Shown here piece after piece: positions 1-49,822 of a stretch of 64,000 nucleotides of DNA. The translations under genes were made by a program, and so were the position numbers. Numbering within the stretch: the stretch's first letter is position 1; the number at the start of each line of letters is the position of its first letter. The stretch lies in assembly GCF_988242995.1 (NCBI RefSeq), contig NZ_OZ547043.1; one strand, given 5' to 3'. A model generated the notes under the pieces. That model worked only from the letters and a program-made list of their open reading frames with translations. It had not been told where the DNA came from and did not search any database.

Positions 1-452
1 CGTTTAAGGAGGTTTCAGCAGTAAGCCTGAATGGTGTTGCCGGAGGTAACGGTTTTTGTATCGACAGTTTTGATATTCAGTTCGATAACAAACTCCAGAC
101 ACAGCGTTGTATCGGGACTGGCTCGCCTTATGCAGGAGCAAATATTCCGACTACTTTTACACCGTCCGGTACGGTGACGCTTTCATGGTCTAAAGCCGCG
201 TGGGAAATCTGGAGTAAAACACTGACTGGAGAAACAGTTCCGTTCAGCTTCACGCTTTCGAATGGAGAGGGGGCATACACTTTCAGTTTCCCGAAGGTTC
301 AGGTGTCAGGTGAATGGCCTGATGGGGGTAATAGCGACATTATCCAGGTTCAATTGAGCATTACCGCAGCAGATGAAGCACCTACGATAACCAGAAAAAA
401 AAATTCCCCGGCTGCCGTGATCGCAAAAGCCAGTGCTGAGGCGATTAGTTGA
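1..452 (+). CDS. Phage major tail protein (lambda V-like), 3' fragment; the gene starts upstream of the window
   Basis: Reading frame is open from position 3 to the stop at 450-452; it sits immediately upstream of the G/GT-H-M-L-K-I-J block, as V does in lambda. Identity inferred from position only. Confidence 0.45.
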   Translation, partial: FKEVSAVSLNGVAGGNGFCIDSFDIQFDNKLQTQRCIGTGSPYAGANIPTTFTPSGTVTLSWSKAAWEIWSKTLTGETVPFSFTLSNGEGAYTFSFPKVQVSGEWPDGGNSDIIQVQLSITAADEAPTITRKKNSPAAVIAKASAEAIS

Positions 453-500
453 TTTTCCGTTATTCCTCCTGTGGTACTGCCCTACAGGGGGACGCATTGA

Positions 501-962
501 ATGAGGTTATGGATGTTTATTCTTAATCAGAAAATTATCATTGGTGGAGAACGCTGGTTTACGCCAATGAAGGACTTAAAACCTGTAGACGGGTTAAAAC
601 TGTTGGTGGTAAGCAGCGATAACGATCAGTATCGCTCCCGTAATGCATTAATCCGTCGCCACATTGAGAAAATGGATGCCAGTTTGCACGTCGGAACGAA
701 GGAGTTTGATATTTCAAAGGTTTCCGAGGTGGATTCTGTTGATGATTTACTCATTGATAATGCCGCTCGTTATCTGCTGAAAGACTGGAAAGGGGTTGGT
801 GAACTGGTTAATGGTGTTGAGGTTGCACTGGAATATACGGCAGAACGAGGGATCGCGCTGCTTAAGCAGAATCCAGAGTTGTACTGGCAGATCCTTGCAG
901 AAGCAGCCAGCATCGCCCAGGGTAAAGAGCAGCAGAAGCAGGATACGATAAAAAAGCCATAG
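501..962 (+). CDS. Tail assembly chaperone (lambda G-like)
   Basis: 153-aa ORF directly upstream of the tape measure gene; it ends just after an in-frame A_AAA_AAG slippery heptamer, and the -1 frame continues open into the next ORF (G/GT architecture). Confidence 0.6.
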   Translation: MRLWMFILNQKIIIGGERWFTPMKDLKPVDGLKLLVVSSDNDQYRSRNALIRRHIEKMDASLHVGTKEFDISKVSEVDSVDDLLIDNAARYLLKDWKGVGELVNGVEVALEYTAERGIALLKQNPELYWQILAEAASIAQGKEQQKQDTIKKP

Positions 963-1270
963 CTGCCCAGCGGTGGTTATCGGAGTTCGGGGGAGAAAGG
1001 GGGGAAAAGGCAAGATGGAAGCGAGAAAAACTCAGGTTGCCACCGATACCGGAACCAGAAATAGACCCGGTGCTTAAGGAGTTGTTGTACGCCTATTCGG
1101 TAATATCCCGTGCCCGACGTTATGCTGGAATGGCTGGGGTGCCTTTGCCTTTATCTCTGACAGAGATAAATGAATATTTAGCCACTCATCCGGTATTGAT
1201 TGAGCGCGATGAATTTGAAGCAGTGATCTTTGCACTGGATGACCAGTATTTTCAGGAGCAGTGTGTGTAG
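501..1270 (+). CDS. Tail assembly chaperone GT fusion, predicted product of a programmed -1 ribosomal frameshift
   Basis: The -1 frame is open from 956 through the 77-aa ORF 1037-1270 (which the track starts at TTG); I checked codon by codon for stops between 956 and 1037 and found none. Confidence 0.45.
950..956 (+). other. Putative -1 frameshift slippery heptamer A_AAA_AAG
   Basis: Codons ata-aaa-aag sit in the G frame at 948-956, three codons before the G stop; the heptamer is the same type as the dnaX frameshift site. Confidence 0.5.
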
Positions 1271-1390
1271 TTGTTAATTACGTACACTCTGTTACAGAGA
1301 TGTGATTGTGTCTTTAATTAAATCGATGATGCTCCTGGAGAAAAGCATTGCGTGGCCTCGTAATCGCTATATCTACTATTATGTCGCCTG

Positions 1391-1416
1391 AAACCCACTT
1401 CGCGGTGGGTTTTTTG
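1391..1416 (+). terminator. Terminator-like hairpin plus T-tract about 20 nt upstream of the tape measure start
   Basis: aacccac-ttcgcg-gtgggtt stem-loop followed by TTTTTTG; an AGGAG ribosome-binding site follows before the ATG at 1436. Confidence 0.35.
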
Positions 1417-1435
1417 TTGTCAGGAGTTTTAATAA

Positions 1436-4400
1436 ATGGCAGAGCAAACCTCGCGTCTCGCAATAATTATTGATAGCACTGGAGCGAAAAATAATGCTGA
1501 CAATCTGACCTCCTCATTAGTCAAAATGACGCAGGCTGGGGAAACTGCTGCAAATAGCGCAGGGAAAGTGACTAAGGCAACAGAAGATGAGAAGAACGCG
1601 CTCGCAAAATTAAAAGCAGCTATTGATCCAGTTGGTGCCGCAATTGATACTGTCGGTCGACGCTATTCTGAATTAAAGAAATTTTTCGATAAAGGGCTTA
1701 TTGATAAAGAAGAATATGAATTTCTTGTCCGTAAACTTAATGAAACCACAGAGGAATTGAGCGGGGTTGCGCAAGCGCAGAGAGAAGCCGAGAAGGCCGG
1801 AAAACTTGCTGCCGCCCAGCAGGAAGCGCAGGCTCAGGCCTTTCAAAGAATGCTGGACAAGATCGACCCTCTGGCTGCGGCGCTAAGAAATCTTGAACAA
1901 CAGCATGATGAACTTAATGCTGCGTTTGCATCCGGGAAAATAAATGGTTCTCAGTTTGAGAATTATAGCCGAAAAATACAGGAAACACGGCGAGAGCTTA
2001 CCGGAGAGGCTCAGGCAGAGCGAGAAGCAGCAAAAGCGCATGATGAACAGGTTGTTGCTTTGCAACGTCTGATTGCTCAACTTGATCCTGTCGGAACTGC
2101 TTTTAATCGTCTGGTAGAACAACAGAAACAGCTCAATGAAGCAAAAGCTAAGGGGATGCTTTCTCCTGAAATGTATGAGGAGCTTTCTGGAAAACTTCGT
2201 GCTATGCGGAGTGAGCTTGAGGTTACTCAATCACAATTAAGCAAAACCGGAATGTCGGCAAAACAAACGGCTTTTGCTATGCGCATGTTGCCTGCACAAA
2301 TGACGGATATTGTTGTTGGGTTGTCCACTGGTCAGTCGCCATTTATGGTGTTAATGCAGCAGGGCGGCCAGCTAAAAGATATGTTCGGTGGGATTGGCCC
2401 GGCGATCAAAGGTGTAGGTTCTTATGTGCTGGGATTAATTAATCCTTTTACCCTGGCCGCAGCAGCCGTTGGGGTCTTAGGACTGGCTTACTATAAAGGC
2501 TCTCAGGAGCAGGACGAATTTAATAAATCTCTTATTCTTACCGGAAATCAGTTGGGGACAACCAGCGGGCAATTGGGCGATATAGCTCAACGTGCCGGGA
2601 ATGCGGCTGATTCGACAACTGGTGCTGCGGCGGCAGTATTAAATCAGCTTGTGCGTTCGGGAAAGGTAGCGAGCAGTTCGCTGGAGCAAGTGACGACAGC
2701 GATAGTAAAAACGAGCGAAGTAACAGGAATATCAACCGAACAACTGGTTAATGACTTCAATGAAATTGCAAAGGATCCTGTCAGTGCCATATCAAAACTT
2801 AATGATCAGTACCATTTTCTGACACTTGCGACTTATAACCAGATTAAGGCGCTACAGGATGAAGGGAACCAGCAGGAGGCCGCCCGCATTGCGACAGAAG
2901 AATACTCATCCTCAATGATCCAGCGCACCAACCAGATTAAAGAAAATCTTGGTTATCTTGAGACTGCATGGAAAGCTGTCGCAGACTCCGCAAAATGGGC
3001 ATGGGATTCCATGCTGGATATTGGCCGTGAGGCCTCCCTTGATCAAAAAATCTCAGATGTTCTCCGTCAAATTGATGAAATAGAAAAAAATACCCGACCC
3101 GGAGTTTTCGGGTTAGGTGGCATTGGAGATGGCGGAGCTCAAAATAAAAGGCTGGCACGATTAAAGCAGCAATTGGGCGTACTTCAAGCAGAAAAAATTG
3201 CTCAGGACGTACTAAATTCATCAATAAACGATTACAACAAGCGACAACAGGAAGGAATTGAACTCAGACAGAGAGCAGATGCCTTTTCAAAACAATATCA
3301 GACCCGGGAGCAGCAGAGAGCTAGTGAACTTGCAAAACTGGAAAAGCTAAAGAATCAGTATTCAAAGGAAGAATATAATAATCTTATCGCTCAAATAAAT
3401 GAGCGTTATAAAGATCCAAAGCAACCAAAGGCGAAAGGTTATTCTGATGATGCAGCCCAACGAATGATTGATCATCTGAATCAACAGAATGCGTTACTAA
3501 GTTCACAAGCTGAGTTGACCGTTAAATTAAGTTCCTCTGAACAGGAACTGGTTAAGTGGCGTCAGCGGATTGCCGACCTAGAGTCACGACCATCATCGAA
3601 ATTAACCCAGGATCAGAAATCGCTTCTCTTACACCGGGAAGAAATAACCGCGTTGATGGAGAAAAATGTTGCGATTGAAAAGAATAACAGGCTAATCAAG
3701 GAATCCGCCGAAATAACAGCATGGCGTGATTCATTGCAGGCTTCGATTGATAATCGTCAGCAGGGGTATGATATTCAGATTGCTGGTTATGGGGTTGGCG
3801 ATAAAAATCAGCAACGCCAGCAGGAATTACTGCGGATTGAACATGGATATAACAATCAGCGTCTGCAACTTGAACGTGACTATGCAGATAAATCCCGTGG
3901 AATGTCAGATCATGTTTTTCAAGAGAAAATGCAGGCTCTGAATGATGCTCTGGAACGGGAAAAAGAAATTGTCAGACAGAAAAACGAGCAGCTCGATATT
4001 CAGGCAGGAGACTGGGTTAGTGGTGCCTCCCAGGGATTCAATAACTGGCTGGATGACACTAAGGATATCAGTGAGCAGATAAAATCAACCACGACTCAGA
4101 TGTTTGATGGGATGACCGATGCGCTGGGTGATTTTGTCACGACAGGCAAGGCAAATTTTCGTTCTTTCGCTACTTCCGTGATTTCGGATCTTAGTCGAAT
4201 AGCATTAAAGGCTTCAATTACTGGGATTTTCGACAGCATTAGTAACAGTTCTTCTGGGGGGATTTTAGGAACTATCGGGAGTGCTATTAGTAAATTTATT
4301 CCGAATGCAAAGGGCGGTGTTTATGAGTCTCCGTCATTGAGCACGTATTCGAACGGTATTTATGATTCCCCGCAATTTTTTGCTTTTGCAAAAGGGGCTG

Positions 4401-4669
4401 GTGTTTTTGGTGAGGCTGGACCGGAAGCCATTATGCCATTAACACGAACTTCCGATGGTTCTCTTGGTGTCAGAGCTATTAATAGTAAAAGTGGTAATGG
4501 AGGCGGAGATATTACCTATGCCCCTGTATACCAAATCACTATTCAAAATGACGGCCAGAATGGAGAGATTGGCCCTCAGGCAATAAAAGCACTTATGGGG
4601 ATGGTTGATCAGCGGGTGCAGGGCACTCTGTTAAATATGCGACGTGATGGGGGAATGTTAAGTGGCTAA
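1436..4669 (+). CDS. Phage tail tape measure protein (lambda H-like)
   Basis: 1077-aa ORF, coiled-coil-rich N-terminal half and Gly-rich C-terminal part; sits between G/GT and M. Confidence 0.85.
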
Positions 4670-5000
4670 TACGGAAGAATTTCACTGGTTACCAGAGGAT
4701 GGAATGAAAACAGAAAATAAACCATCGATAAAAACTGTAAGATTTGGCGATGGTTATGAGCAACGAAGTCCAAATGGACTTAATCATTCTCTGCGCGTTT
4801 TCACCTGTGATTTCAAAGTTGAGGCGAATGAACGTGATTCATTTGAAAAATTTTTAGCCCGGCATGAAGGCTATAAATCTTTTTTTTGGCGCCCGCCGGG
4901 TATTAACAGAAAAATCAGAGTGGTGTGTCGAACGTGGTCAGCGACAGAACATATCACCTATACCGATTTTTCGTGTCAGTTTGACGAAGTGGTGATCTGA
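4662..5000 (+). CDS. Minor tail protein M
   Basis: 112 aa; [10 protein letters not shown]...KSFFWRPP motifs resemble lambda gpM as I recall it; overlaps the H stop. Confidence 0.85.
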
Positions 5001-5698
5001 TGCAGGACATACAACAGGAAACACTGAATGAATGCATTCGGGCGGAGCAGTCGGCCAGCGTGGTGCTCTGGGAAATCGACCTGACAGAGGTTGGCGGGGA
5101 TCGCTACTTTTTCTGCAATGAGCAGAATGAAAAAGGTGAGTCTGTCACCTGGCAGAGTCGGCAGTATCAGGCCTATCCCATTCAGGGGAGTGGATTTGAG
5201 ATGAACGGCAAAGGTGCCAGTGCAAGGCCAACACTGAAAGTATCTAACCTGCACGGCATGGTCACCGGGATGGTGGAGGATTTACAGAGTCTGGTCGGCG
5301 GAACAGTCGTCCGGCGTAAGGTCTACGCCCGTTTTCTGGATGCGGTGAACTTCGTCAACGGAAACAGAGACGCCGATCCGGAGCAGGAGGTGATCAGCCG
5401 CTGGCGCATTGAGCAGTGCAGCGAACTGAGCGCGGTGAGTGCCTCTTTTGTACTGTCCACGCCGACGGAAACGGACGGCGCTGTTTTTCCGGGACGTATC
5501 ATGCTGGCCAACACCTGCACCTGGACCTATCGCGGCGATGAGTGCGGTTATCACGGTCCGGCGGTCGCGGATGAATATGACCAGCCAACGTCCGATATCA
5601 CGAAGGATAAATGCAGCAAATGCCTGAGCGGTTGTAAGTTCCGCAATAACGTCGGCAACTTTGGCGGCTTCCTTTCCATTAACAAACTTTCGCAGTAA
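5000..5698 (+). CDS. Minor tail protein L
   Basis: 232 aa, lambda gpL-like with a Cys-rich C-terminus (CTWTYRGDECGY...CSKCLSGCKF); start overlaps the M stop. Confidence 0.85.
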   Translation: MQDIQQETLNECIRAEQSASVVLWEIDLTEVGGDRYFFCNEQNEKGESVTWQSRQYQAYPIQGSGFEMNGKGASARPTLKVSNLHGMVTGMVEDLQSLVGGTVVRRKVYARFLDAVNFVNGNRDADPEQEVISRWRIEQCSELSAVSASFVLSTPTETDGAVFPGRIMLANTCTWTYRGDECGYHGPAVADEYDQPTSDITKDKCSKCLSGCKFRNNVGNFGGFLSINKLSQ

Positions 5699-5702
5699 TC
5701 CC

Positions 5703-6446
5703 ATGACAGAGACAGAATCAGCGATTCTGGCGCACGCCCGGCGATGTGCGCCAGCGGAGTCGTGCGGCTTCGTGGTAAGCACGCCGGAGGGGGAAAGATA
5801 TTTCCCCTGCGTGAATATCTCCGGTGAGCCGGAGGCGTATTTCCGTATGTCGCCGGAAGACTGGCTGCAGGCAGAAATGCAGGGTGAGATTGTGGCGCTG
5901 GTCCACAGCCACCCCGGTGGTCTGCCCTGGCTGAGTGAGGCCGACCGGCGGCTGCAGGTGCAGAGTGATTTGCCGTGGTGGCTGGTCTGCCGGGGGGCGA
6001 TTCATAAGTTCCGCTGTGTGCCGCATCTCACCGGGCGGCGCTTTGAGCACGGGGTGACGGACTGTTACACGCTGTTCCGGGATGCTTATCATCTGGCGGG
6101 GATTGAGATGCCGGATTTTCATCGCGAGGATGACTGGTGGCGTCACGGTCAGAATCTCTATCTGGATAATCTGGAGGCCACAGGGCTGTATCAGGTGCCG
6201 TTGTCATCAGCACAACCGGGCGATGTGCTGCTGTGCTGTTTTGGTTCATCGGTGCCGAATCATGCCGCCATTTACTGTGGTGATGGCGAGCTGCTGCACC
6301 ATATTCCTGAACAACTGAGCAAACGAGAGAGGTATACCGACAAATGGCAGCGACGCACACACTCCCTCTGGCGTCACCGGGCATGGCGCGCATCTGCCTT
6401 TACGGGGATTTACAACGATTTGGTCGCCGCATCGACCTTCGTGTGA
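5703..6446 (+). CDS. Tail assembly protein K (NlpC/P60-JAB-like)
   Basis: Start chosen at the internal ATG (MTETESAILAHARRCAPAESCGF...), in frame with the track ORF 5661-6446 (track start is TTG); contains an HSHPGG motif. Confidence 0.8.
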   Translation: MTETESAILAHARRCAPAESCGFVVSTPEGERYFPCVNISGEPEAYFRMSPEDWLQAEMQGEIVALVHSHPGGLPWLSEADRRLQVQSDLPWWLVCRGAIHKFRCVPHLTGRRFEHGVTDCYTLFRDAYHLAGIEMPDFHREDDWWRHGQNLYLDNLEATGLYQVPLSSAQPGDVLLCCFGSSVPNHAAIYCGDGELLHHIPEQLSKRERYTDKWQRRTHSLWRHRAWRASAFTGIYNDLVAASTFV

Positions 6447-6985
6447 AAACGGGGGCTGAAGCCATCCGGGCGCTGGCCACACAGCTCCCGGCGTTTCGTC
6501 AGAAACTGAGCGACGGCTGGTATCAGGTACGGATTGCCGGGCGTGATACAGGTGAAACGGAATTATCAGCCCGTCTTAATGAACCGCTGGCAAATGGTGC
6601 TGTGATCCATATCGTGCCGCGTCTGGCAGGAGCCAAAAGTGGCGGTGTGTTTCAGGCTGTGCTGGGGGCGGCTGTTATGGCGGTTGCTATATGGATGCCG
6701 GGGGTAGGAATTATGGCGAGTAATCTGCTGTTTTCTCTCGGTGCCAGTATGACGCTTGGCGGTGTTGCACAGATGCTGGCCCCTAAACCCAAAACCCCCC
6801 GCACACAGACAACGGATAACGGCAAACAGAACACCTATTTTTCTTCACTGGATAATATGGTTGCCCAGGGCAATGTTCTGCCCGTTCTGTACGGTGAAAT
6901 GCGCGTGGGATCACGTGTGGTATCTCAGGAGATCAGCACAGCAGATGAAGGTGATGGTGGTCAGGTTGTGGTGATTGGTCGCTGA
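6344..6985 (+). CDS. Tail assembly protein I
   Basis: 213 aa starting MAATHTLPLASPGMARICLYGDLQRFGRR, lambda gpI-like; overlaps the end of K as in lambda. Confidence 0.85.
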   Translation: MAATHTLPLASPGMARICLYGDLQRFGRRIDLRVKTGAEAIRALATQLPAFRQKLSDGWYQVRIAGRDTGETELSARLNEPLANGAVIHIVPRLAGAKSGGVFQAVLGAAVMAVAIWMPGVGIMASNLLFSLGASMTLGGVAQMLAPKPKTPRTQTTDNGKQNTYFSSLDNMVAQGNVLPVLYGEMRVGSRVVSQEISTADEGDGGQVVVIGR

Positions 6986-7004
6986 TGAAAAACGTTTTAT
7001 GTGA

Positions 7005-7030
7005 AACCGCCTCCGGGCGGTTTTATCGTT
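7005..7030 (+). terminator. Terminator-like hairpin between I and J
   Basis: aaccgcc-tccg-ggcggtt stem-loop followed by a T-rich run, 16-40 nt upstream of the J start. Confidence 0.3.
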
Positions 7031-7045
7031 TATGGAGCATGACGA

Positions 7046-10000
7046 ATGGGTAAAGGCAGCAGTAAGGGGCATACCCCGCGCGAAGCGAAGGACAACCTGA
7101 AGTCCACGCAGCTGCTGAGTGTGATCGATGCCATCAGCGAAGGGCCGGTTGAAGGTCCGGTGGATGGATTAAAAAGCGTGCTGCTGAACAGTACGCCGGT
7201 GCTGGACAGTGAGGGGAATACCAATATATCCGGCGTCACGGTGGTGTTCCGGGCCGGTGAGCAGGAGCAGACTCCGCCGGAGGGATTTGAATCCTCCGGT
7301 TCCGAGACGGTGCTGGGTACGGAAGTGAAATATGACACGCCGATCACCCGCACCATCACGTCGGCAAACATCGACCGTCTGCGCTTTACCTTCGGTGTGC
7401 AGGCACTGGTGGAAACCACCTCAAAGGGGGACAGGAATCCATCGGAAGTCCGCCTGCTGGTTCAGATACAACGTAACGGTGGCTGGGTGACGGAAAAAGA
7501 CATCACCATTAAGGGTAAAACCACCTCGCAGTATCTGGCCTCAGTGGTGGTGGATAACCTGCCGCCGCGCCCGTTTAATATCCGGATGCGCAGGATGACG
7601 CCGGACAGCACCACAGACCAGCTGCAGAACAAAACGCTCTGGTCGTCATACACCGAAATCATCGATGTGAAACAGTGCTACCCGAACACGGCACTGGTCG
7701 GCGTGCAGGTGGACTCGGAGCAGTTCGGCAGCCAGCAGGTGAGCCGTAATTATCATCTGCGCGGGCGTATTCTGCAGGTGCCGTCGAACTATAACCCGCA
7801 GACGCGGCAATACAGCGGTATCTGGGACGGGACGTTTAAACCGGCATACAGCAACAACATGGCCTGGTGTCTGTGGGATATGCTGACCCATCCGCGCTAC
7901 GGCATGGGGAAGCGTCTCGGTGCGGCGGATGTGGACAAATGGGCGCTGTATGTCATCGGCCAGAATTGCGACCAGTCGGTGCCGGATGGCTTTGGTGGCA
8001 CGGAGCCTCGCATCACCTGTAATGCCTGGCTGACCACGCAGCGCAAGGCGTGGGATGTGCTCAGTGATTTCTGCTCGGCGATGCGCTGTATGCCGGTATG
8101 GAACGGGCAGACGCTGACGTTCGTGCAGGACCGGCCATCGGATAAGGTGTGGACCTATAACCGCAGTAATGTGGTGATGCCGGATGATGGCGCGCCGTTC
8201 CGCTACAGCTTCAGCGCCCTGAAGGACCGTCATAATGCCGTTGAGGTGAACTGGATTGACCCGAATAACGGCTGGGAGACGGCGACAGAGCTTGTGGAGG
8301 ACACGCAGGCCATTGCCCGTTACGGTCGTAACGTCACGAAGATGGATGCCTTTGGCTGTACCAGCCGGGGGCAGGCACACCGCGCCGGGCTGTGGCTGAT
8401 TAAAACAGAACTGCTGGAAACGCAGACCGTGGATTTCAGCGTCGGCGCAGAAGGGCTTCGCCATGTACCGGGTGATGTTATTGAAATCTGCGATGATGAC
8501 TATGCGGGGATCAGCATTGGCGGGCGCGTGCTGGCGGTGAACAGCCAGACCCGGACGCTGACGCTCGACCGTGAAATCACGCTGCCATCCTCCGGTACCA
8601 CGCTGATAAGCCTGGTTGACGGGCAGGGGAGTCCGGTCAGCGTGGAGGTTCAGTCCGTCACCGACGGCGTGAAGGTGAAAGTGAGTCGGGTTCCTGACGG
8701 CGTTGCCGGATACAGCGTGTGGGGGCTGAAGCTGCCGACGCTGCGCCAGCGCCTGTTCCGCTGTGTGAGTATCCGTGAGAACGATGACGGCACGTATGCC
8801 ATCACTGCCGTGCAGCATGTACCGGAAAAAGAAGCCATCGTGGATAACGGGGCGCACTTTGACGGCGACCAGAGCGGCACGGTGAATGGTGTCACGCCGC
8901 CAGCGGTGCAGCACCTGACCGCCGAAGTCACCGCAGACAGCGGGGAATACCAGGTGCTGGCGCGCTGGGATACGCCGAAGGTGGTGAAGGGCGTGAGCTT
9001 TATGCTTCGCCTGACCGTGGCAGCGGATGACGGCAGTGAGCGGCTGGTCAGCACGGCCCGGACGACGGAAACCACATACCGCTTCAGGCAGCTGGCTCTG
9101 GGAAATTACAGTCTGACAGTCCGGGCGGTAAATGCGTGGGGGCAGCAGGGCGATCCGGCGTCGGTATCGTTCCGGATTGCCGCACCGGCAGCGCCATCGC
9201 GGATTGAGCTGACGCCGGGCTATTTTCAGATAACCGCCACGCCGCATCTTGCGGTTTATGATCCGACGGTACAGTTTGAGTTCTGGTTCTCGGAAAATCG
9301 GATTGCGGATATCAGGCAGGTTGAAACCAGCGCGCGTTATCTTGGCACGGCGCTGTACTGGATAGCCGCCAGTATCAATATCAAACCGGGCCATGATTAT
9401 TATTTTTACGTTCGCAGTGTGAACACCGTCGGCAAATCGACATTCGTGGAGGCTGTCGGTCGGGCGAGCGATGATGCGGAAGGTTACCTGGATTTTTTCA
9501 AAGGCAAGATAACCGAATCTCATCTCGGCAAGGAGTTGCTGGAAAAAGTCGACCTGACGGAGGATAACGCCAGCAGACTGGATGAGTTTTCGAAAGAGTG
9601 GAAGGATGCCAACGATAAATGGAATGCCATGTGGGCTGTCAAAATTGAGCAGACCAAAGACGGCAAACATTATGTCGCGGGTATTGGCCTCAGCATGGAG
9701 GATACAGAGGAAGGCAAACTGAGTCAGTTTCTGGTTGCCGCCAATCGTATCGCGTTTATTGACCCGGCAAACGGGAATGAAACGCCGATGTTTGTGGCGC
9801 AGGGCAATCAGATATTCATGAACGAAGTGTTCCTGAAATATCTGACGGCTCCCACCATTACCAGCGGCGGTAATCCTCCGGCATTTTCCCTGACACCGGA
9901 CGGGCGGCTGACGGCGAAAAATGCCGATATCAGCGGTAACGTGAATGCGAACTCCGGGACGCTCAACAACGTCACGATTAACGAGAACTGCCGGGTTCTG

Positions 10001-10441
10001 GGAAAACTGTCCGCGAACCAGATTGAAGGCGATCTCGTTAAAACAGTGGGCAAAGCTTTCCCCCGTGACTCCCGGGCACCGGAGCGGTGGCCATCAGGGA
10101 CCATTACCGTCAGGGTTTATGACGATCAGCCGTTTGACCGGCAAATTGTTATTCCGGCGGTGGCATTCAGTGGCGCTAAGCATGAGAGAGAGCATACTGA
10201 TATTTACTCCTCATGCCGTCTGATAGTGCGGAAAAACGGTGCTGAAATTTATAACCGTACCGCGCTGGATAATACGCTGATTTACAGTGGCGTTATTGAT
10301 ATGCCTGCCGGTCACGGTCACATGACACTGGAGTTTTCGGTGTCAGCATGGCTGGTAAATGGCTGGTATCCCACAGCAAGTATCAGCGATTTGCTGGTTG
10401 TTGTGATGAAGAAAGCCACTGCAGGCATCACGATTAGCTGA
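7046..10441 (+). CDS. Host specificity protein J (central tail fibre / tip attachment protein)
   Basis: 1131-aa ORF; N-terminus [34 protein letters not shown] and most of the length are lambda J-like from memory; the last ~150 aa diverge. Confidence 0.9.
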
Positions 10442-10460
10442 ATTTTATAACCCAGATACG

Positions 10461-10487
10461 GGCACCAGAAATGGTGCCTTTTTTATT
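10461..10487 (+). terminator. Intrinsic terminator downstream of J
   Basis: ggcacc-agaaat-ggtgcc hairpin followed by TTTTTTATT. Confidence 0.6.
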
Positions 10488-10508
10488 GCAGAAAAGCGAG
10501 AGGTAATT

Positions 10509-11108
10509 ATGCGTAAATTATGTGCTGTTATTCTGTCCGCAGTAGTCTGGCTGGTTGCCGCTGGTACGCCAGCGAGCGCAGCAGAGCATCAGTCCACACT
10601 AAGCGCCGGGTATCTTCAGACCCATACTGATATGCCAGGCAGTGATGACCTGAAGGGCATTAACGTGAAATACCGTTATGAATTTACGGACATGCTGGGG
10701 CTGGTGACGTCATTCAGTTATGCCAATGCCAAAGATGAGCAAAGAACGCATTACAGCGATACCCGCTGGCATGAAGATTCAGTGCGTAACCGCTGGTTCA
10801 GCATGATGGCGGGGCCATCTGTACGCGTGAATGAATGGTTCAGTGCTTATGCGATGGCAGGTGTGGCTTACAGCCGTGTTTCGACGTTCTCCGGGGATTA
10901 TCTCCGCGTAACTGACAACAAGGGGAAAACGCACGATGTGCTGACCGGAAGTGATGACGATCGCCACAGCAACACGTCTCTGGCGTGGGGAGCTGGCGTG
11001 CAGTTTAACCCGACCGAATCCGTGGCCATTGATATTGCTTATGAAGGCTCCGGCAGTGGCGACTGGCGCACTGACGGTTTCATCGTGGGTGTCGGTTATA
11101 AGTTCTGA
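10509..11108 (+). CDS. lom: Lom-like outer membrane beta-barrel protein (Ail/Lom/PagC family)
   Basis: 199 aa with a signal peptide and a C-terminal aromatic residue (…VGVGYKF); lambda lom position between J and stf; bracketed by terminator hairpins. Confidence 0.8.
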   Translation: MRKLCAVILSAVVWLVAAGTPASAAEHQSTLSAGYLQTHTDMPGSDDLKGINVKYRYEFTDMLGLVTSFSYANAKDEQRTHYSDTRWHEDSVRNRWFSMMAGPSVRVNEWFSAYAMAGVAYSRVSTFSGDYLRVTDNKGKTHDVLTGSDDDRHSNTSLAWGAGVQFNPTESVAIDIAYEGSGSGDWRTDGFIVGVGYKF

Positions 11109-11134
11109 TTAGCCAGGTAACACAGTGTTATGAC

Positions 11135-11162
11135 AGCCCGCCGGTTCAGGCGGGCTTTTTTG
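11135..11162 (+). terminator. Intrinsic terminator downstream of lom
   Basis: agcccgcc-ggttcag-gcgggct hairpin followed by TTTTTTG. Confidence 0.6.
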
Positions 11163-11166
11163 TGGA

Positions 11167-13530
11167 GTGGATATGGCAGCAGTAAAAATCTCAGGTGTGC
11201 TGAAAGATGGTGCGGGAAAACCAATACAGAACTGCACTATTCAACTGAAGGCAAAGCGTAACAGCACCACGGTACTGGTGAACACGGTGGCCTCTGAAAA
11301 TCCGGATGAAGCCGGGCGTTACAGCATGGATGTTGAGTATGGTCAGTACAGCGTCACCCTGCTGGTTGAAGGTTTTCCGCCTTCACATGCCGGGACCATT
11401 ACCGTCTATGAAGGTTCCAGACCAGGTACGCTGAATGATTTTCTCGGTGCCATGACGGAAGATGATGTCATGCCGGAGGCATTGCGTCGTTTTGAGGCAA
11501 TGGTGGAAGAAGCGGCACGCAACGCCGAAGCCGCCTCTCAGAGCGCAGCAGCGGCAAAGAAATCCGAAACTGCAGCGGCATCATCGAAGAACGCGGCGAA
11601 AACCTCAGAAACAAATGCAGCTAACAGCGCACAGGCGGCAGCGTCCTCGCAGACTGCATCGGCAAACTCCGCGACAGCAGCCAAAAAATCAGAAACCAAC
11701 GCGAAAAATAGCGAGACAGCCGCAAAGACGAGCGAAACCAACGCAAAGTCCAGCCAGACGGCAGCGAAAACAAGCGAAACGAATGCCAAAGCCAGTGAAA
11801 CTGCGGCAAAAAACAGCCAGGTTGCAGCAGCCCAAAGCGAGAGCGCGGCAGCCGGTTCTGCGACTTCAGCAGCTGGATCAGCAACTGCTGCGGCTAACAG
11901 CCAGAAAGCTGCGAAGACGAGTGAAACTAACGCAAAGTCCAGCCAGACGGCAGCGAAGACCAGCGAAACGAATGCCAAAGCCAGCGAAACTGCGGCGAAA
12001 AACAGTCAGGATGCAGCAGCCCAAAGCGAGAGTGCTGCAGCTGGTTCTGCCACTGCATCAGCCAACAGTCAAAAAGCAGCAAAAACCAGTGAAACCAATG
12101 CAAAGACAAGCGAGACTGCAGCGGCGAACTCGGCGAAAGCATCCGCTGCAAGCCAGACCGCTGCAAAAGCAAGTGAAGACGCAGCCAGAGAGTATGCAAG
12201 CCAGGCAGCAGATCCGTATAAATATGTCTTACAGCCGCTGCCTGATGTGTGGATACCGTTTAACGATTCACTGGATATGATTACGGGCTTTTCGCCATCA
12301 TATAAAAAGATTGTTATTGGTGACGACGAAATAACGATGCCTGGCGACAAGATTGTTAAGTTTAAACGTGCATCGAAAGCAACCTATATTAACAAATCTG
12401 GTGTGTTGACAGAGGCTGCCATTGATGAGCCACGATTTGAACGTGATGGCCTGCTTATTGAGGGGCAAAGAACTAATCTTCTGCTTAATTCAACAAATCC
12501 ATCTAAATGGAATAAGTCAGGCAATCTGGAACTCACAGAAATATCCACGGATTCTTTTAATTTTACTTATGGGAGATTTACTGTAAAAGATACTCTTATT
12601 GGTCAGACAAGTGCTATTAATATCGTAACGATTTCTGGCAGTAAAGGGTTTGATGTCACAGGTGATGAAAAATATGTGACCATTTCATGCCGTGTAAGAA
12701 GTGATGTTGAAAATATAAGGTGTCGTTTAAGATTTGAACACCATGATGGTTATACTTACACTTTTTTGGGAGATGCTTACCTCAATTTATCAACACTTGT
12801 AATTGATAAAACTGGTACTGCTGCAGACCGTATTATTGCAAAGGCTGTAAAAGATGAGGTTACTGGTTGGATTTTCTATCAGGCTACAATTAATGCACTA
12901 GATACAGAGAGCATGATTGGTGCGATGGTTCAATACGCTCCTGTAAAAGGTTCAGGTACAGCATCTGGAGACTATCTGGATATCGCAACTCCACAAGTGG
13001 AAGGTGGATCAAGTGCTTCGTCATTTATTGTAACTGATATAACTGCAAGCACTCGCGCAAGCGATATGGTGACAGTCCCAATCAAGAATAACCTTTATAA
13101 TCTTCCTTTTACGGTTCTTTGTGAGGTACATAAGAACTGGTATAAAACGCCAAATGCAGCACCGCGTGTTTTTGATACCGGCGGTCATCAAACCGGAGCG
13201 GCTATTATTCTTGGCTTCGGTCGTTCAACAGATTACGACGGATTTCCTTATTGTGATATAGGTTTGGCTAACAGACGGGTAAACGAAAACGCATCGCTTG
13301 AAAAAATGGTTATGGGGATGCGTGTAAAGTCAGATCAGTCTACGTGCTCAGTAAGTAACGGGCGTATATCCAGCGAAAAGAAAGCCACATGGTCCTATAT
13401 TCAGAACTCCGCAATTATCCGTATTGGAGGCCAGACTACAGCCGGGTTGCGTCATTTATTTGGTCATGTCAGGAATTTCAGAATATGGCACAAGGCATTG
13501 ACTGATGCTCAGATGGGGGAGTCAATCTAA
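11167..13530 (+). CDS. stf: Side tail fibre protein (Stf-like) with a replaced C-terminal receptor-binding region
   Basis: 787 aa; N-terminal region with Ala/Ser/Thr-rich KTSETNAK-type repeats typical of Stf; the C-terminal ~400 aa are markedly AT-richer by eye and end in a motif (GHVRNFRIWHKALTDAQM) reminiscent of ConA/LamG-like lectin folds. Confidence 0.8.
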   Translation: MDMAAVKISGVLKDGAGKPIQNCTIQLKAKRNSTTVLVNTVASENPDEAGRYSMDVEYGQYSVTLLVEGFPPSHAGTITVYEGSRPGTLNDFLGAMTEDDVMPEALRRFEAMVEEAARNAEAASQSAAAAKKSETAAASSKNAAKTSETNAANSAQAAASSQTASANSATAAKKSETNAKNSETAAKTSETNAKSSQTAAKTSETNAKASETAAKNSQVAAAQSESAAAGSATSAAGSATAAANSQKAAKTSETNAKSSQTAAKTSETNAKASETAAKNSQDAAAQSESAAAGSATASANSQKAAKTSETNAKTSETAAANSAKASAASQTAAKASEDAAREYASQAADPYKYVLQPLPDVWIPFNDSLDMITGFSPSYKKIVIGDDEITMPGDKIVKFKRASKATYINKSGVLTEAAIDEPRFERDGLLIEGQRTNLLLNSTNPSKWNKSGNLELTEISTDSFNFTYGRFTVKDTLIGQTSAINIVTISGSKGFDVTGDEKYVTISCRVRSDVENIRCRLRFEHHDGYTYTFLGDAYLNLSTLVIDKTGTAADRIIAKAVKDEVTGWIFYQATINALDTESMIGAMVQYAPVKGSGTASGDYLDIATPQVEGGSSASSFIVTDITASTRASDMVTVPIKNNLYNLPFTVLCEVHKNWYKTPNAAPRVFDTGGHQTGAAIILGFGRSTDYDGFPYCDIGLANRRVNENASLEKMVMGMRVKSDQSTCSVSNGRISSEKKATWSYIQNSAIIRIGGQTTAGLRHLFGHVRNFRIWHKALTDAQMGESI

Positions 13531-13811
13531 TGAAAGATTTAACACTCAAATTTGCAGACAGGGCCGACTTTTCGGCCTTTATGGATAGCATTGGCTATTA
13601 TGATGACGAGTCGATGCAGGATGATATTCTTATTGACGTGATAGGTAACGTGTACAAAGAAACCGGAGAACTGACTGAAGATGGCGAACCGGTATGTGTT
13701 AAGGAAGACGGATATTTTGTAAACGTGCGCATCATTAATGATGCAAAAAAATCGTCAATATTCGATGAATACGCGGTTGTAGTTGAACATCAACTTCGTG
13801 GCTGGATGTGA
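13530..13811 (+). CDS. Hypothetical acidic 93-aa protein; possible tail-fibre chaperone
   Basis: ATG overlaps the stf stop (TAATG), suggesting translational coupling; no family recognised. Confidence 0.4.
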   Translation: MKDLTLKFADRADFSAFMDSIGYYDDESMQDDILIDVIGNVYKETGELTEDGEPVCVKEDGYFVNVRIINDAKKSSIFDEYAVVVEHQLRGWM

Positions 13812-13820
13812 GGGAGACAA

Positions 13821-14525
13821 ATGGCTACATCGACAGTAATTCCAGGAGACATCACCACGTTAAAGGGAGATGTCAGTAAAGCCAAGGAAGATATTTCCTC
13901 AATTAACGGAAAAGTATCAACGCTTCAGGCTGATATGACCAGTGCAAAGCAGGATATCAGCACCAGATACACAAAAACTGAAGTTGATAATAAGCTGAAA
14001 AACAAACTGGAAGTGAACGCTCTGGAAAGCGGTCGTTATGGTGGAGATTTTTACCCGTTGACTGGCCGTGAAGCGTTTTATTTGTGGGGATTGGGCACGA
14101 CTACAGCGGCGGCAAACCTTTATCTTAATCCTGACCCCGCAATTTCGTCTGTGCTGCGGTCAACATCGTCTATCCGCTATAAACATTCAGTAGAGACAAT
14201 AGATTCAGAGCACGCCGAACTCATTTTCAGGATGCGCCCTGTGTGGTACAGGTCACAATGCGAAAATGACAGGCGTGACTGGGGATTCTACGGATTGATT
14301 GCCGAGGAAGTAGGAGAAATTGCCCCTCAGTTTGTACACTGGCGACCAGCTAACGAAGATGATGCACCGGAAGCTATTTCCAGCAATGGCCTTGTTGCCG
14401 AAGGTGTAATGTACGAACGTCTGGTTGTTCCACTGATTCACCATATCCAGAAGCTGACTGAAAGAGTTGATGAACTTGAGTCAGAATTAAAGTTGTTATC
14501 CGTTTCCCGAAGCGATATCGGATAA
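13821..14525 (+). CDS. Short fibre-like protein: N-terminal coiled coil plus C-terminal intramolecular-chaperone (peptidase S74-like) domain
   Basis: 234 aa; heptad-repeat N-terminus; C-terminal region (RPVWYRSQ...WGFYGLIAEEVGEIAPQFV...MYERLVVPLIHHIQKLTERVDELESEL) matches, from memory, the self-cleaving chaperone domain of endosialidase and T5 L-shaped tail fibres. Confidence 0.5.
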   Translation: MATSTVIPGDITTLKGDVSKAKEDISSINGKVSTLQADMTSAKQDISTRYTKTEVDNKLKNKLEVNALESGRYGGDFYPLTGREAFYLWGLGTTTAAANLYLNPDPAISSVLRSTSSIRYKHSVETIDSEHAELIFRMRPVWYRSQCENDRRDWGFYGLIAEEVGEIAPQFVHWRPANEDDAPEAISSNGLVAEGVMYERLVVPLIHHIQKLTERVDELESELKLLSVSRSDIG

Positions 14526-14535
14526 AGGAGGAGTA

Positions 14536-14829
14536 ATGGATATAACACCTTTCCTTCATGCGCTTTGTGCTGTGGCTGCGCAGCTACTGATTGGTCTTTT
14601 TACCGGGAACTGGGCTTACGGGGCGATAGCCGGTTGTACGTTCTTCATTGCGCGTGAACACACCCAGGCAGAATATCGCTGGATCGAAATGTTCGGGCAT
14701 GGCAAGCGAATGAATATGCCGTGGTGGGGCGGTTTTGATCCGCGCGCGTGGGATGTGGCAAGCCTGATGGATTTTGCTGTGCCGGTGGTGGCGTGTCTGC
14801 TGGTCTGGCTGTTGGTTAATCGTGGGTGA
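14536..14829 (+). CDS. Hypothetical small membrane protein
   Basis: 97 aa with two to three hydrophobic segments; GC-rich coding sequence; function unknown. Confidence 0.35.
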   Translation: MDITPFLHALCAVAAQLLIGLFTGNWAYGAIAGCTFFIAREHTQAEYRWIEMFGHGKRMNMPWWGGFDPRAWDVASLMDFAVPVVACLLVWLLVNRG

Positions 14830-14839
14830 AAAAAGGTGA

Positions 14840-14968
14840 GCTGTATATGCAACGGAGGAAGAAACCCCGTTGCTGGAAGCCTGGAAAAAGTATCGGATGC
14901 TGCTGAACCGTGTTGATACATCAACTGCACCTGATATTGAGTGGCCTACGAACCCTGTCAGGGAGTAA
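14840..14968 (+). pseudogene. tfa: 3' remnant of a tail fibre assembly gene (tfa), lacking start and N-terminal part
   Basis: Frame-2 translation gives ...[36 protein letters not shown], which matches the conserved C-terminus of lambda/P2-type Tfa proteins as I recall it; an in-frame stop lies immediately upstream (14837-14839). Confidence 0.55.
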
Positions 14969-15180
14969 TCATTGGGATTATGCCGCAGAAACGTTGTATG
15001 CAATAACGTTCTGCGGTTGGCTGATGCACTTTCGAGAGTGCATGTATTGAATTATTTCCAGCTATTATCGATTTTACGTATTTTTTGCATGAGAGAATTT
15101 GTACCTCCTCCCAACAACGACCTTCCATGACTTTCCGGACTTCTGTGGGCCAGCGGACGATGCTGCCCTCGGATGTTGTG

Positions 15181-16038
15181 CTAATTGGGTGATGACAAAT
15201 CCTGTGTATGGGTGTTTCCCTTTGTGCGTGCGTTGATGCTGGTAACGGTGAACGTCATGATGAACACAACCGCGAATAAGACGACAATCGTCGGAGCTGG
15301 TGCACTGTCGATAAAAAAGGACAACCAGACACCAGTCATTGACACTATTACCGATATGCCAATCGCCAGTAGGAGCGCAATATGAAAGCGTTGTGTCAGG
15401 AGTACCGCAATGGCGCCAGGCGCAATGAGCAGAGAAATGGAGAGAATGATACCTACCGCTTTCAGCGTCGCCACAATGGTCAGAGAGACCATGCACAGCA
15501 GCCCATAATGCAGACATCTCGTATGCAAACCGCTTACCTGCGCCTGTTGATAATCAAAGCTGAACAGCAAAAAATCCCGCCATTTTACGCTAATAACAAG
15601 TGTAACCAGCCCGGCAATAATCACCGTCTGGATTATATCGCCGATGGTTACCCCGAGCATGTCGCCGAAAAGAATATGGTCAAGATGTACGTCTGGTTTG
15701 ACTGCAATATACAAGATCAGACCTGCGGCAAACATGCCAGAAAAAACAATCCCCATCACTGTATCTTGCTTGATTCGGCTGTTGTCTTTCAGGTATCCCG
15801 TCGCCACCGCGCAGAATACTCCGGCGACGAATGCCCCTGTAGCCAGAGGTAACCCCAGAATCCAGGCAAGCACGATGCCAGGAAAAACCGCATGACTCAT
15901 CGCGTCACCCATCAGTGCCCAACCTTTCAGGACCAGAAAGACCGACAGCAGCGCACAGGGTATGGAAACTACCAGTGAAATCAGCAGTGCGTGACTCATA
16001 AAGGTGAACTGCAGTGGCTCCAGTAATAATGCCATCAT
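15181..16038 (-). CDS. sitD: Mn/Fe ABC transporter permease SitD
   Basis: 285-aa polytopic membrane protein of the ABC-3 (ZnuB/MntB) type; last gene of a four-gene operon with overlapping stop/start codons. Confidence 0.8.
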   Translation of the reverse strand: MMALLLEPLQFTFMSHALLISLVVSIPCALLSVFLVLKGWALMGDAMSHAVFPGIVLAWILGLPLATGAFVAGVFCAVATGYLKDNSRIKQDTVMGIVFSGMFAAGLILYIAVKPDVHLDHILFGDMLGVTIGDIIQTVIIAGLVTLVISVKWRDFLLFSFDYQQAQVSGLHTRCLHYGLLCMVSLTIVATLKAVGIILSISLLIAPGAIAVLLTQRFHIALLLAIGISVIVSMTGVWLSFFIDSAPAPTIVVLFAVVFIMTFTVTSINARTKGNTHTQDLSSPN

Positions 16039-16892
16039 GAGCGATCCTCCAGCGCTTTATGCGCACGCCGACGATTTGCCAAAAGCCCATGGGTGGGCGC
16101 AAATACAAATGCTAAAAGAAACAGCAGTGTCTGCGCCACCACGATGATTCCACCTGTCGCGCCGTCCAGAAAGTAACTGACCCACGCGCCGAGGAAACTG
16201 GTTACACTGCCAATAGTTACAGCAATTATGAGCAGGCGGGGAAAACGATCGGTTAACAACCATGCTGTTGCACCGGGAGTCACCACCAGACAGATCACCA
16301 GAAAGGCACCAACCGTTTGCAGCGCCGCAACGGTCGAAACCGACAGCAGGGTGAAGAAGAGGATTTTTAATCTGCCCGGATGCAATCCAATAGCACGAGC
16401 GTGATTCTCGTCGAAAAAGGTCACCATAAGATCTTTCCATTTGAAAAAAAGCACGATGATCGAGAGAATGCCAATGATAGTGAGTTGCAGGATATCCGCC
16501 GGATCGATTGCCAGAATATTGCCCAGGACGATGGTCTGAATGTTCACGGATGTCGGGTTCAATGACACCATAAACAGCCCCAGGCCAAAAAAGGAGGAGA
16601 AGATCAGGCCGATGATGGCATCTTCTTTTAAGCGAGTGCGTTGGTTAAGAAACAGCATGCTGCCCGCTGCCAGTCCGCCGGAAAAGAAGGCTCCCAGAGA
16701 AAACGGAAGCCCCAGCATATATGCCCCCGCAACACCCGGGACAATAGAGTGCGACAGCGCATCGCCAATCAGCGACCAGCCTTTTAGCATCAGATAGCAT
16801 GACAGGAAAGCGCAGAGACCGCCGACCATCGCCGAGACCCACATCGCATTGAGCATATATTCATAGCTGAAGGGTTCCAGTAGCACGTTCAT
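16035..16892 (-). CDS. sitC: Mn/Fe ABC transporter permease SitC
   Basis: 285-aa polytopic membrane protein; overlaps sitB and sitD by 4 nt each. Confidence 0.8.
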
Positions 16893-17716
16893 CTTGCTTC
16901 CCCCTGCACCGCTGACGGTCGATGTGCCACAAAAGGGTGTTCATCGTCAGTAATAATGCTTTCTTCCGAGCCGTTAAGTGTGACATGGCGCAGTACGCCG
17001 CTAAAAGCCAGCTCCAGGTTCTCGGCTGTAAAAGTGGTGTCTGTCGGCCCGCTTGCCAGGACGGTGCCTTTGACCATGACCGTATAATCGCAAAATGTCG
17101 TGACTGAGCCGAGATTGTGCGTTGAGACAAGCATCGTCTTGCCTTCCGCGCGTAACTCCCTCAACAGGCTGATGATTTTCGCTTCGGTTTTCACATCAAC
17201 GCCCGTAAAAGGTTCATCCAGCAGGATCACATCACCCTGCTGTGCAATCGCTCTCGCCAGAAAGACGCGTTTCTTTTGTCCACCGGAAAGCTCGCCGATT
17301 TGTCGATGGCGAAAATCCACCATATCGACACGTTCCAGCGCATCGGTGACAATCTGACGATCCCTCTTTTTGGCTATACGCAACATACCCATGTGCCCAT
17401 AGCGGCCCATCATCACCACATCTTCCACTAGTACAGGAAATGACCAGTCAACCTCTTCTGACTGAGGGACGTAGGCAACCAGGTTTTTCTGTAGCGCCTG
17501 TCGCGTGGGAATACCCAGAACAGATATCTTTCCGCTGGTCAGACGCACAAATCCCATAATCGCTTTAAACAACGTCGATTTTCCGGAACCGTTTACCCCA
17601 ACCAGAGCGGCAATAGATCCACTTGGTACTGTGAAGGATGCATCGCGCAGTGCTGTGTGCCCGTTACGCCAGGTGACAGTAACATCATTAACGACAATGC
17701 CCGCAGATTGCATCAT
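16889..17716 (-). CDS. sitB: Mn/Fe ABC transporter ATP-binding protein SitB
   Basis: Walker [10 protein letters not shown], signature LSGGQKKR, Walker B ILLDEP. Confidence 0.85.
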
Positions 17717-18630
17717 TATTTCTCCCTTTTCCCGGCTTTAATTCCCTGTACCAGCGTACTGGTAGTAACCTTCAGAAGGTCGATATACGTAGGTACCGGG
17801 CCGTTTTCTGTGCTCAGGGAATCGACATAGAGTACACCGCCGTAGTGCGCGCCGGTTTCACGCGCAACCTGACGCGCTGGTTTATCGGAAATCGTACTCT
17901 CGCTAAAGACTGCCGGGATATGATTTTTCTTCACCATATCAACAACCTTACGTACCTGCTGCGGCGTGCCTTGTTGATCGGCATTAATCGGCCACAGATA
18001 AAGCTCTTTTAGCCCCAAATCGCGTGCGAGATAAGAAAAAGCCCCTTCACTGGTGACCATCCATCGCTGATTCTCAGGGAGTTCAGCAATCTGCTTACGC
18101 AGGGGGGCAAGGGTTTGGGTAATCTTGGCTTTATAAGTATCGGCATTACGTTGGTAGGTTTGTGCATTTGCCGGATCGTATTTTATCAACGCATCACGAA
18201 TATTATCGACGTAAATCAGAGCATTATCTGGCGACATCCAGGCATGGGGGTTAGGTTTGCCCTCATAGGGGCCTTCAGTGATCCCTACTGGCGTCACACC
18301 CGAAGAGACAATTACTTCTGGAACCCCATTAAGATGCTGGTAAAAGCGTTGGAACCACAATTCCAGATTCATACCATTGGCGAGAATCAGTTGTGCCCCC
18401 TGCGCACGTTTAATATCGCCAGGGGTAGGCTGATACTCATGAATTTCTGCACCGGGCTTGGTTATGGATGAGACTTCTGCAGCATCTCCAGCCACGTTTT
18501 TGGCCATATCTGCGATGATGGTAAATGTTGTAATGACCTTGAATTTTTCAGTTGCACTCGCCTGAAATGCGATCGAGCAGGTGAGGGCGAGGCACCCCAA
18601 GAGCATGGTTACTTTTTTTATTGAGTACAT
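17716..18630 (-). CDS. sitA: Periplasmic metal-binding protein SitA (cluster A-I substrate-binding protein)
   Basis: 304 aa with a signal peptide; first gene of the operon; MntR and Fur boxes lie upstream. Confidence 0.85.
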
Positions 18631-49790: not shown

Positions 49791-49822
49791 CAGATGTAAA
49801 ATTATTTTGTCCTTTTAATTAT

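Follow-up and report, generated by a model that had tools for sequence, protein, structure and literature searches.

The closest described counterparts of the fibre considered here come from several kinds of particle. In phages DT57C and DT571/2, the lateral fibres are the products of two genes, LtfA and LtfB, which form a branched, O-antigen-binding structure, and the host switches upon recombination of their divergent C-terminal regions (PMC4728585). In the gene transfer agent RcGTA, the head-spike fibre Rcc01080 binds the capsular polysaccharide of Rhodobacter (PMC7296036, PMC10218006); only residues 2-10 of this protein are resolved in PDB entry 6TB9, and hence there is no experimental structure of its domain (PMC7296036). 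Lectin-like beta-sandwich heads have also been described on the fibres of BASEL phages (PMC12143355), and the BASEL papers give no ligand for the KurtStettler or VogelGryff fibres. Here, we consider the side tail fibre gene stf of a lambda-like prophage in an Escherichia coli chromosome, contained in a window (the whole stretch of DNA analysed) of 64,000 nucleotides (nt) from contig NZ_OZ547043.1 of assembly GCF_988242995.1. The reading that we favour, at a probability of roughly three in four, is that stf encodes a side tail fibre of lambda type that has lost its classical distal tip and carries in its place a receptor-binding module able to move horizontally.

The gene is an intact open reading frame (ORF) on the + strand, running from a GTG at 11167 to 13530 and encoding 787 amino acids (aa); the annotated start of the equivalent RefSeq gene in a second E. 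coli locus, 97.9% identical to this one, corresponds to the ATG at 11173, so that stf is placed at 11173-13530. In this lambdoid tail cluster, J (7046-10441) and lom (10509-11108) immediately precede it, just as they precede stf in lambda, and the annotations of homologous loci agree with this assignment. The locus from 10500 to 15000 is found whole in 215 of 5426 complete genomes, S88 and APEC O1 included. An initial annotation, made from the letters and their translations, had quoted the end of the protein, and the ORF does indeed end in GHVRNFRIWHKALTDAQMGESI.

That annotation had also described the last ~1.3 kb of stf as AT-rich and had taken it for a swapped cassette. The guanine-plus-cytosine (GC) content is far from uniform across the gene: in 300-bp windows it is 0.54-0.57 over 11300-12200 and 0.35-0.44 over 12200-14000, and by segment it is 0.539 in the N-terminal part of stf (11167-12231), 0.411 in the AT-rich part (12232-13530) and 0.569 in J, with the switch at about 12200. 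The AT-rich part, which corresponds to a 439-aa module (aa 349-787) consisting of a junction and two jelly-roll domains, is among the lowest 1% of all 1.3-kb windows in the 64 kb, and the 1.3-kb GC minimum of the prophage part falls at 12251. Two details of the earlier description require adjustment. A GC-rich 5′ part does exist, but it makes up about 45% of the gene, not two-thirds, and the AT-rich tract begins near 12200 but does not stop with stf, since it passes 13530 and continues through the next gene (13530-13811, GC 0.408) and the 5′ part of a second fibre gene to about 14000.

It could be argued that such a contrast requires no horizontal exchange at all, and that the gene has evolved as a unit in which an Ala-rich shaft, with its GC-rich codons, simply stands beside a beta domain rich in Asn, Lys and Ile. 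Amino acid content does contribute, as 52% of the shaft is Ala, Ser and Thr while the module is richer in Asn, Lys, Ile, Tyr and Phe. However, third-position GC falls as well, from 0.485 in the N-terminal part to 0.326 in the module (it is 0.68 in J), so the contrast is only partly due to the Ala/Ser/Thr-rich shaft. Descent as one co-evolving gene is also contradicted by the pattern of identity to other phages, to the extent that we regard it as hardly credible.

When the two halves of the protein are searched separately, their best matches come from different phages. The N half (aa 1-348) is closest to the lambdoid temperate phages PhiR47_1, 2G7b, ev207 and Tritos, at 97-99%, whereas the C half is closest to a virulent T5-like Salmonella phage, vB_Si_CECAV_FGS017 (hereafter FGS017), at 92.8%, with 2G7b reaching only 76%. 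The C half is itself a composite. Its junction (aa 349-428) is 98.8% identical to 2G7b, 98.6% to FGS017 and 59.7% to PhiR47_1; the core of jelly-roll domain 1 (aa 429-628) is 94.0% identical to FGS017, which lacks the lambdoid anchor, and only 54.0% to 2G7b and 47.8% to PhiR47_1; and the LamG domain that follows (aa 629-787) is 94.3% identical to 2G7b, 88.7% to FGS017 and 55.9% to PhiR47_1. The nucleotide comparisons place the same boundaries on the DNA. Against 2G7b, identity stays at 95-100% as far as 12450, drops to 57-65% from 12450 to 13050 and returns to 94-97% from 13050 to 13800, the drop and the return both falling within stf; beyond 13800 the second fibre cannot be aligned, and 99% identity resumes from 14550. 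PhiR47_1 matches at about 98% as far as ~12116, at 50-60% from there to 14535 and at 99% thereafter, and nucleotide homology to FGS017 is limited to 12232-13553, at 91%. The exchange units are thus nested, with a multi-gene cassette of ~2.4-2.6 kb, whose limits are about 12116 and 14535 (14847 when lambda is the reference), enclosing a 600-bp core that sits between two conserved flanks, the junction (12211-12450) and the LamG end (13050-13530). This core (12451-13050, + strand), the swapped sub-domain and lowest-GC stretch, is the variable part of a domain resembling gene transfer agent head-spike fibres and CBM4_9; its nesting inside a larger cassette had not been part of the initial annotation.

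The same architecture recurs across a large family. A search of 1.84 billion representatives returned module relatives in 2072 representative clusters at 50% identity (E <= 0.001), and the module is present in 220 cultured phage records. Of 5426 complete E. coli genomes, 1732 contain parts of it; many E. coli loci match the module flanks only, in two pieces that together give ~57% coverage at 95% identity, and other E. coli genomes carry the module of this particular stf allele at 99.9% identity. Alignment of the family reveals the same two flanks and domain boundary as conserved features, with both jelly-roll cores hypervariable and the highest entropy in 12451-13050. In all 115 full-length relatives examined, which range from 343 to 1247 aa, the module ends within ~10 residues of the C-terminus, and a C-terminal location was likewise constant in a set of proteins of 438-1481 aa whose N-termini are unrelated. 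Its N-terminal partners fall into at least four families that Pfam distinguishes (phage_tail_N, P2-type Phage_tail_fib, Phage_T7_tail and CarboxypepD_reg), the module being found on fibre N-termini of lambda, T5, T1, P2 and T7 type. Had the C-terminal domain always travelled with the same Stf N-terminus in a gene of even composition, a swap would have been difficult to maintain; because neither the N-terminus nor the GC content is constant, the interpretation of this region as a horizontally exchanged cassette stands.

What the module replaced can be read from the comparison with lambda. Lambda orf-401 and Stf share 60.7% identity over aa 3-273, the N-terminal part that takes in the anchor and a portion of the shaft. 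By contrast, when the stf-tfa region of lambda, orf-314 included, was searched with the module by tblastn, there was no match at E <= 1e-3, and no intact tail-fibre assembly gene (tfa) was found directly downstream of stf, where only a 3′ remnant persists (14848-14968, + strand). The remnant is similar to lambda orf-194 (tfa), with 90% nucleotide identity to its 3′ end over 14848-15018 and 84.6% amino acid identity over 39 residues, and RefSeq labels its equivalent an incomplete tail fiber assembly protein. The N-terminal part of Stf and this remnant are the only lambda matches; the module, a 93-aa ORF, the second fibre and a 97-aa ORF that lie between them have no lambda counterpart. The remnant is the scar of a replacement that took out the classical tip together with most of tfa, and the earlier statement that Stf does not end in a classical tip holds with respect to both orf-314 and intact tfa.

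The nature of the new tip is less obvious from routine annotation, since Pfam applied to full-length Stf matched only N-terminal domains and nothing C-terminal. Because of this blank, the assignment of the C-terminal domains relies on scans of homologues, a profile search and a structure model. The NCBIfam model NF048003 (phage head spike fiber domain) matches at 12454-13059 over profile positions 1-181 of 182 (E = 3.2e-16), scoring 60.4 bits where the cutoff is 36, and phrog_1419 matches the C-terminal part from end to end. Among PDB sequences, Rcc01080 of RcGTA (6tb9_F3) is found at E = 2.4e-4 with the single sequence and at 3e-40 with a profile. The alignment behind that profile, which also served for an AlphaFold (AF2) model, contained 96 of the 115 full-length relatives, and its matches among PDB sequences split the module into two jelly-rolls. 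The first matches Rcc01080, then E217 gp45 and Pa193 gp46 at ~1e-19, a tail fiber gp17 (9occ) at 3e-15, and CBM-CenC; a literature search on PDB entry 9OCC yielded nothing useful. The last 140-160 positions match the S-layer-domain protein 4qvs (6e-9), the botulinum toxin D Hc domain (1e-4), pentraxins and CBM40. On this profile evidence, domain 1 is assigned as a homologue of the RcGTA head-spike fibre, CBM4_9/CenC-like in character, and its presence had gone unremarked in the initial annotation, which spoke of a single lectin-like domain where the module holds two jelly-rolls.

For the second domain (13063-13527, + strand, aa 633-787), which is LamG/ConA-like and ends in GHVRNFRIWHKALTDAQM, the evidence is spread over the family. 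Scanned alone, the module reaches Laminin_G_3 at E = 0.27, its residues 387-434 aligning with model positions 102-149 of 151, while 39 of the 96 homologues match at E <= 0.001, the best at 1.9e-11, and one homologue, P0041, matches over its last 140 residues (model positions 12-151). The idea that the fibre ends in a lectin-like ConA/LamG domain is therefore borne out for the last ~155 aa, by the homologues and the ConA-like profile matches together with the weak match of Stf itself on the terminal strands that had been quoted. The AlphaFold model of aa 349-787 (predicted local distance difference test, pLDDT, 93.6; predicted TM-score, pTM, 0.90) predicts a compact all-beta unit of tandem jelly-rolls with high confidence, and domain 2 has the beta-sandwich jelly-roll fold of ConA-like type. 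Foldseek returned no close solved structure of the module, with TM-scores of at most 0.38, and neither Foldseek nor the accessible literature yielded an experimental structure of it.

Several steps can be envisioned for how such a fibre would act. The heads would bind a surface polysaccharide (O-antigen, lipopolysaccharide core or capsule) reversibly, in a manner modelled on T5-type lateral fibres and the RcGTA head-spike fibre, and virions would thereby gather at the cell surface, where the J tip could reach its outer-membrane receptor. The variable core would set the glycan specificity, so that a swap would alter the choice of receptor as the initial annotation had supposed, and homologous recombination within the conserved flanks would exchange the alleles. 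The module may have been imported from AT-rich virulent phages, given that its GC of 0.41 is near the 0.39 of the T5-like phage and not the 0.51 of the prophage; with 0.39 for the FGS017 locus and 0.41 for the FGS017 copy of the module, the module is native-like by GC in FGS017 and foreign in the prophage. Lastly, a second fibre may dock through a conserved N-terminal peptide and so produce a branched fibre.

A different ligand would change this picture. If the module bound an outer-membrane protein, it would be a protein-specific adhesin comparable to T4 gp37, which recognises OmpC, or to the LamG domains of neurexin. Its structural neighbours do include protein-binding LamG/LNS domains (neurexin, laminin) and the botulinum toxin Hc domain, which binds both protein and ganglioside. 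Set against this, the top-scoring neighbours (AbnA domain 4, CBM40 and CBM-CenC) bind carbohydrate, the sole studied sequence homologue, Rcc01080, binds capsule (PMC10218006), and the phage groups that carry the module have lateral fibres linked to O-antigen recognition (PMC8594841, PMC4728585), which leaves a protein receptor unlikely. The module might alternatively be a depolymerase of the ConA-like glucanase/lyase superfamily (GH16, PL7 and similar families) that cuts O-antigen or capsule where a passive lectin would only bind it; we consider this more improbable still.

A number of points do weigh against a mobile glycan-binding tip of the kind we favour. No ligand for this exact module family was found in the accessible literature, and the suggestion of glycan binding derives from the fold and from distant relatives; the ConA-like and LamG folds also occur in protein-binding domains and in some enzymes, and the Laminin_G_3 match of the Stf sequence by itself is not significant. 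The AlphaFold model is of a monomer, so the oligomeric state and the seating of the heads on a trimeric shaft lie outside it. We infer the direction of transfer from composition alone. Finally, only the tail end of the prophage falls in the window. Mutations at residues 468-556 of the Ltf of phage 37 have been found to widen the O-antigen range (PMC12541327), a result that would be highly pertinent if that Ltf were homologous to the module.

Upstream of the module, Stf is conventionally lambdoid. The N-terminal virion-attachment domain (PF08400 phage_tail_N, aa 5-134, E = 1e-66) is encoded at 11179-11568 on the + strand, and this anchor is 99% identical to that of 2G7b and 100% identical to that of PhiR47_1, with no homology to T5-like LtfA. 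It is followed by an Ala/Ser/Thr/Lys-rich repetitive shaft (aa 135-348, 11569-12210, + strand, GC ~0.55), whose repeat nature, anticipated in the initial annotation, is evident from tandem repeats of period 42 and 189 at 11673-12062. ORFs that overlap the shaft in other frames or on the opposite strand (e.g., 11462-12280 on the + strand and 11538-11978 on the - strand) were taken to be by-products of this repetitive sequence. The LtfA-type protein of FGS017 (3948-6290 of its locus) was observed to have an Ala/Ser/Thr/Lys-rich shaft of "SETNAK"-type repeats resembling the lambdoid Stf shaft, at 45% identity over 253 columns, a figure for which low complexity makes homology uncertain. Judged from these alignments, Stf and the FGS017 fibre may share everything except a virion anchor of ~80-130 aa.

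Between shaft and core lies the conserved junction (12211-12450, + strand), which contains PLPDVWIPFNDSL followed by EPRFE and forms the left flank of the variable core, as seen from its identity to FGS017 and 2G7b. Most of the near-invariant residues of the module family sit here, and the junction is likely a recombination linker. A bolder extension of this idea would see the module as a chaperone-light, plug-and-play adhesin scaffold common to temperate and virulent phages. On that proposal, three independently folding tandem-jelly-roll heads would be carried on a trimeric stalk, a co-travelling 93-aa acidic protein would take the place of Tfa in assembly or docking, and the junction (PLPDVWxPxxDSL...EPRFE...TNLL) and the end strands of LamG would serve as universal recombination linkers that permit 600-bp swaps of specificity between T5-like lytic phages and resident lambdoid prophages. 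Three observations are in keeping with it, namely the self-contained monomer model (pTM 0.90), the flanks of 94-99% identity around a core of 54%, and the co-occurrence of the 93-aa gene with the module across siphoviruses and myoviruses. Taken as a package, including the heads, the dependence on the 93-aa protein and the linkers, it is nonetheless rather doubtful.

The 93-aa gene (13530-13811, + strand) begins in an overlap with the stf stop codon and encodes an acidic protein (isoelectric point 4.2) that matches phrog_1361 at E = 8e-47. By tblastn it is present in 181 phage records, which cover the same taxa as the 220 records of the module, and in nearly all of the annotated records listed it stands beside a fibre gene. 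In lambdoid, T5-like, T1-like, Queuovirinae, Dhillonvirus and rV5-like phages its place is just behind a LamG-tipped fibre gene. It is 91% identical to the 2G7b copy and only 40% to that of FGS017, and therefore does not track the variable core. We regard it as a candidate assembly factor or docking adaptor.

Next comes a short second fibre of 234 aa (13821-14525, + strand), recognised from Pfam and PHROG matches, with a putative N-terminal docking peptide, a coiled coil and a C-terminal Peptidase_S74 intramolecular chaperone (PF13884, aa 116-172, nt 14166-14336, E = 2.7e-5); the PHROG matches are to C-termini of tail fibres. Its first 27-32 aa are 66-67% identical to those of the second fibres of 2G7b and PhiR47_1, and the motif is visible by eye in the second fibre of FGS017 too; this conserved peptide is the sole pointer to docking on the first fibre, at which it hints. 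The protein is unusually short when compared with the second fibres of 2G7b (345 aa), PhiR47_1 (294 aa) and the T5-like phage (581 aa). With S74 starting at aa 116, the mature protein would have ~115 residues, made up of the N-terminal peptide, the coiled coil and a tiny tip, and it may be either a functional minimal fibre or a truncated one.

The last of the three additional genes (14536-14829, + strand; phrog_1443) encodes a 97-aa membrane protein with hydrophobic segments at both ends and forms the right conserved flank of the cassette among lambdoids, being 100% identical in 2G7b and 95.7% identical in PhiR47_1 despite their differing fibre cassettes. It is found neither in lambda nor in the T5-like phage and may represent a moron or a membrane protein of exclusion type. 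The PADLOC defence-system models matched neither Stf nor any of the three ORFs downstream of it.

Beyond the prophage, the window is E. coli chromosome, with a Sit-type Mn/Fe ATP-binding cassette (ABC) transporter, ydbK, ydbH, tynA, paaZ, a BigA-like autotransporter and hrpA on the 3′ side. The transporter is a four-gene cluster on the - strand (15181-18630) that encodes two permeases, an ATPase matching PRK15056 and a substrate-binding protein, and it lies ~200 bp past the tfa remnant, directly at the prophage end. The autotransporter adhesin is an uninterrupted ORF of 2163 aa (50121-56612) related to BigA (NF033178, where its 1864 bits fall short of the curated cutoff, 3400), and an AT-rich patch (~49350-49800, GC ~0.42) lies just upstream of it. 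Chi sites (GCTGGTGG) number 7 in the window, against 2.3 expected from shuffles, and lie within 32699-61050, all in the chromosomal part. Their possible role as recombination hotspots at the module junctions was considered and rejected, since none of the 7 falls in the prophage part (1-15000) and all are at 32699 or beyond.

Mosaicism of tail fibres is textbook material, and the module family is already catalogued as phrog_1419 and NF048003. What is new relative to the accessible literature is the explicit description of two jelly-rolls with mapped boundaries of exchange. As biology the locus is ordinary and not new, a further instance of phages shuffling modules and so altering the hosts to which they can attach. 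Its interest lies in the role of side and lateral fibres, which determine the O-antigen or capsule types that a phage can penetrate; a 600-bp core between near-invariant flanks is a mapped exchangeable unit that could guide the engineering of host range, and it documents gene flow between a lineage of virulent T5-like Salmonella phages and an E. coli prophage.

Set beside the known systems, the locus resembles each of them in part. It is like lambda, with its Stf (orf-401/orf-314) and Tfa, in the position after J and lom, the PF08400 anchor and the homologous N-terminal part, and it differs in that lambda has the orf-314 tip and an intact tfa where this prophage has tandem jelly-rolls and three genes absent from lambda. 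With RcGTA (Rcc01080, also GhsB; PDB 6TB9 chain F3) it has jelly-roll domain 1 in common, with NF048003 above its cutoff. Rcc01080, however, is a single 325-aa subunit whose N-terminal Ile/Leu-Gly repeat fastens it to capsid pentons (PMC7296036), whereas Stf begins with a tail anchor and a shaft; its domain 1 stands at the end of that shaft, with a LamG domain as an additional part behind it, and the two proteins have the domain in common but not the head-spike role. Pseudomonas phage E217 gp45 (8ENV) and Pa193 gp46 (9B45) are components of the myovirus baseplate wedge and not fibre tips, with TM-scores of 0.35-0.38 to the whole module. The Laminin_G_3/ConA-like domains of PF13385 (botulinum toxin Hcn, pentraxins, CBM40) correspond to domain 2 in fold and in the terminal strands, although the Stf sequence is sub-threshold by itself and ligand-binding residues are not transferable.

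The T5-type lateral fibres are a further counterpart. DT57C LtfA ends in a Peptidase_S74 chaperone, while Stf is without S74 (by Pfam) and has a LamG end instead; as in DT57C, two consecutive fibre genes are present, the second of them with a C-terminal Peptidase_S74, and the layout in FGS017 is the same. SPC35, a two-fibre T5-like Salmonella phage, was considered as an experimental link and set aside, as tblastn found no match to the module in its fibre locus. The phrog_1419 LtfA-type fibre of FGS017 differs from Stf in its anchor, which is of T5 pb1 type and not PF08400, but the junction, core and LamG domain are common to both at 89-99% amino acid identity, and the order of fibre, small ORF and second fibre in the virulent phage is the order found in the prophage.

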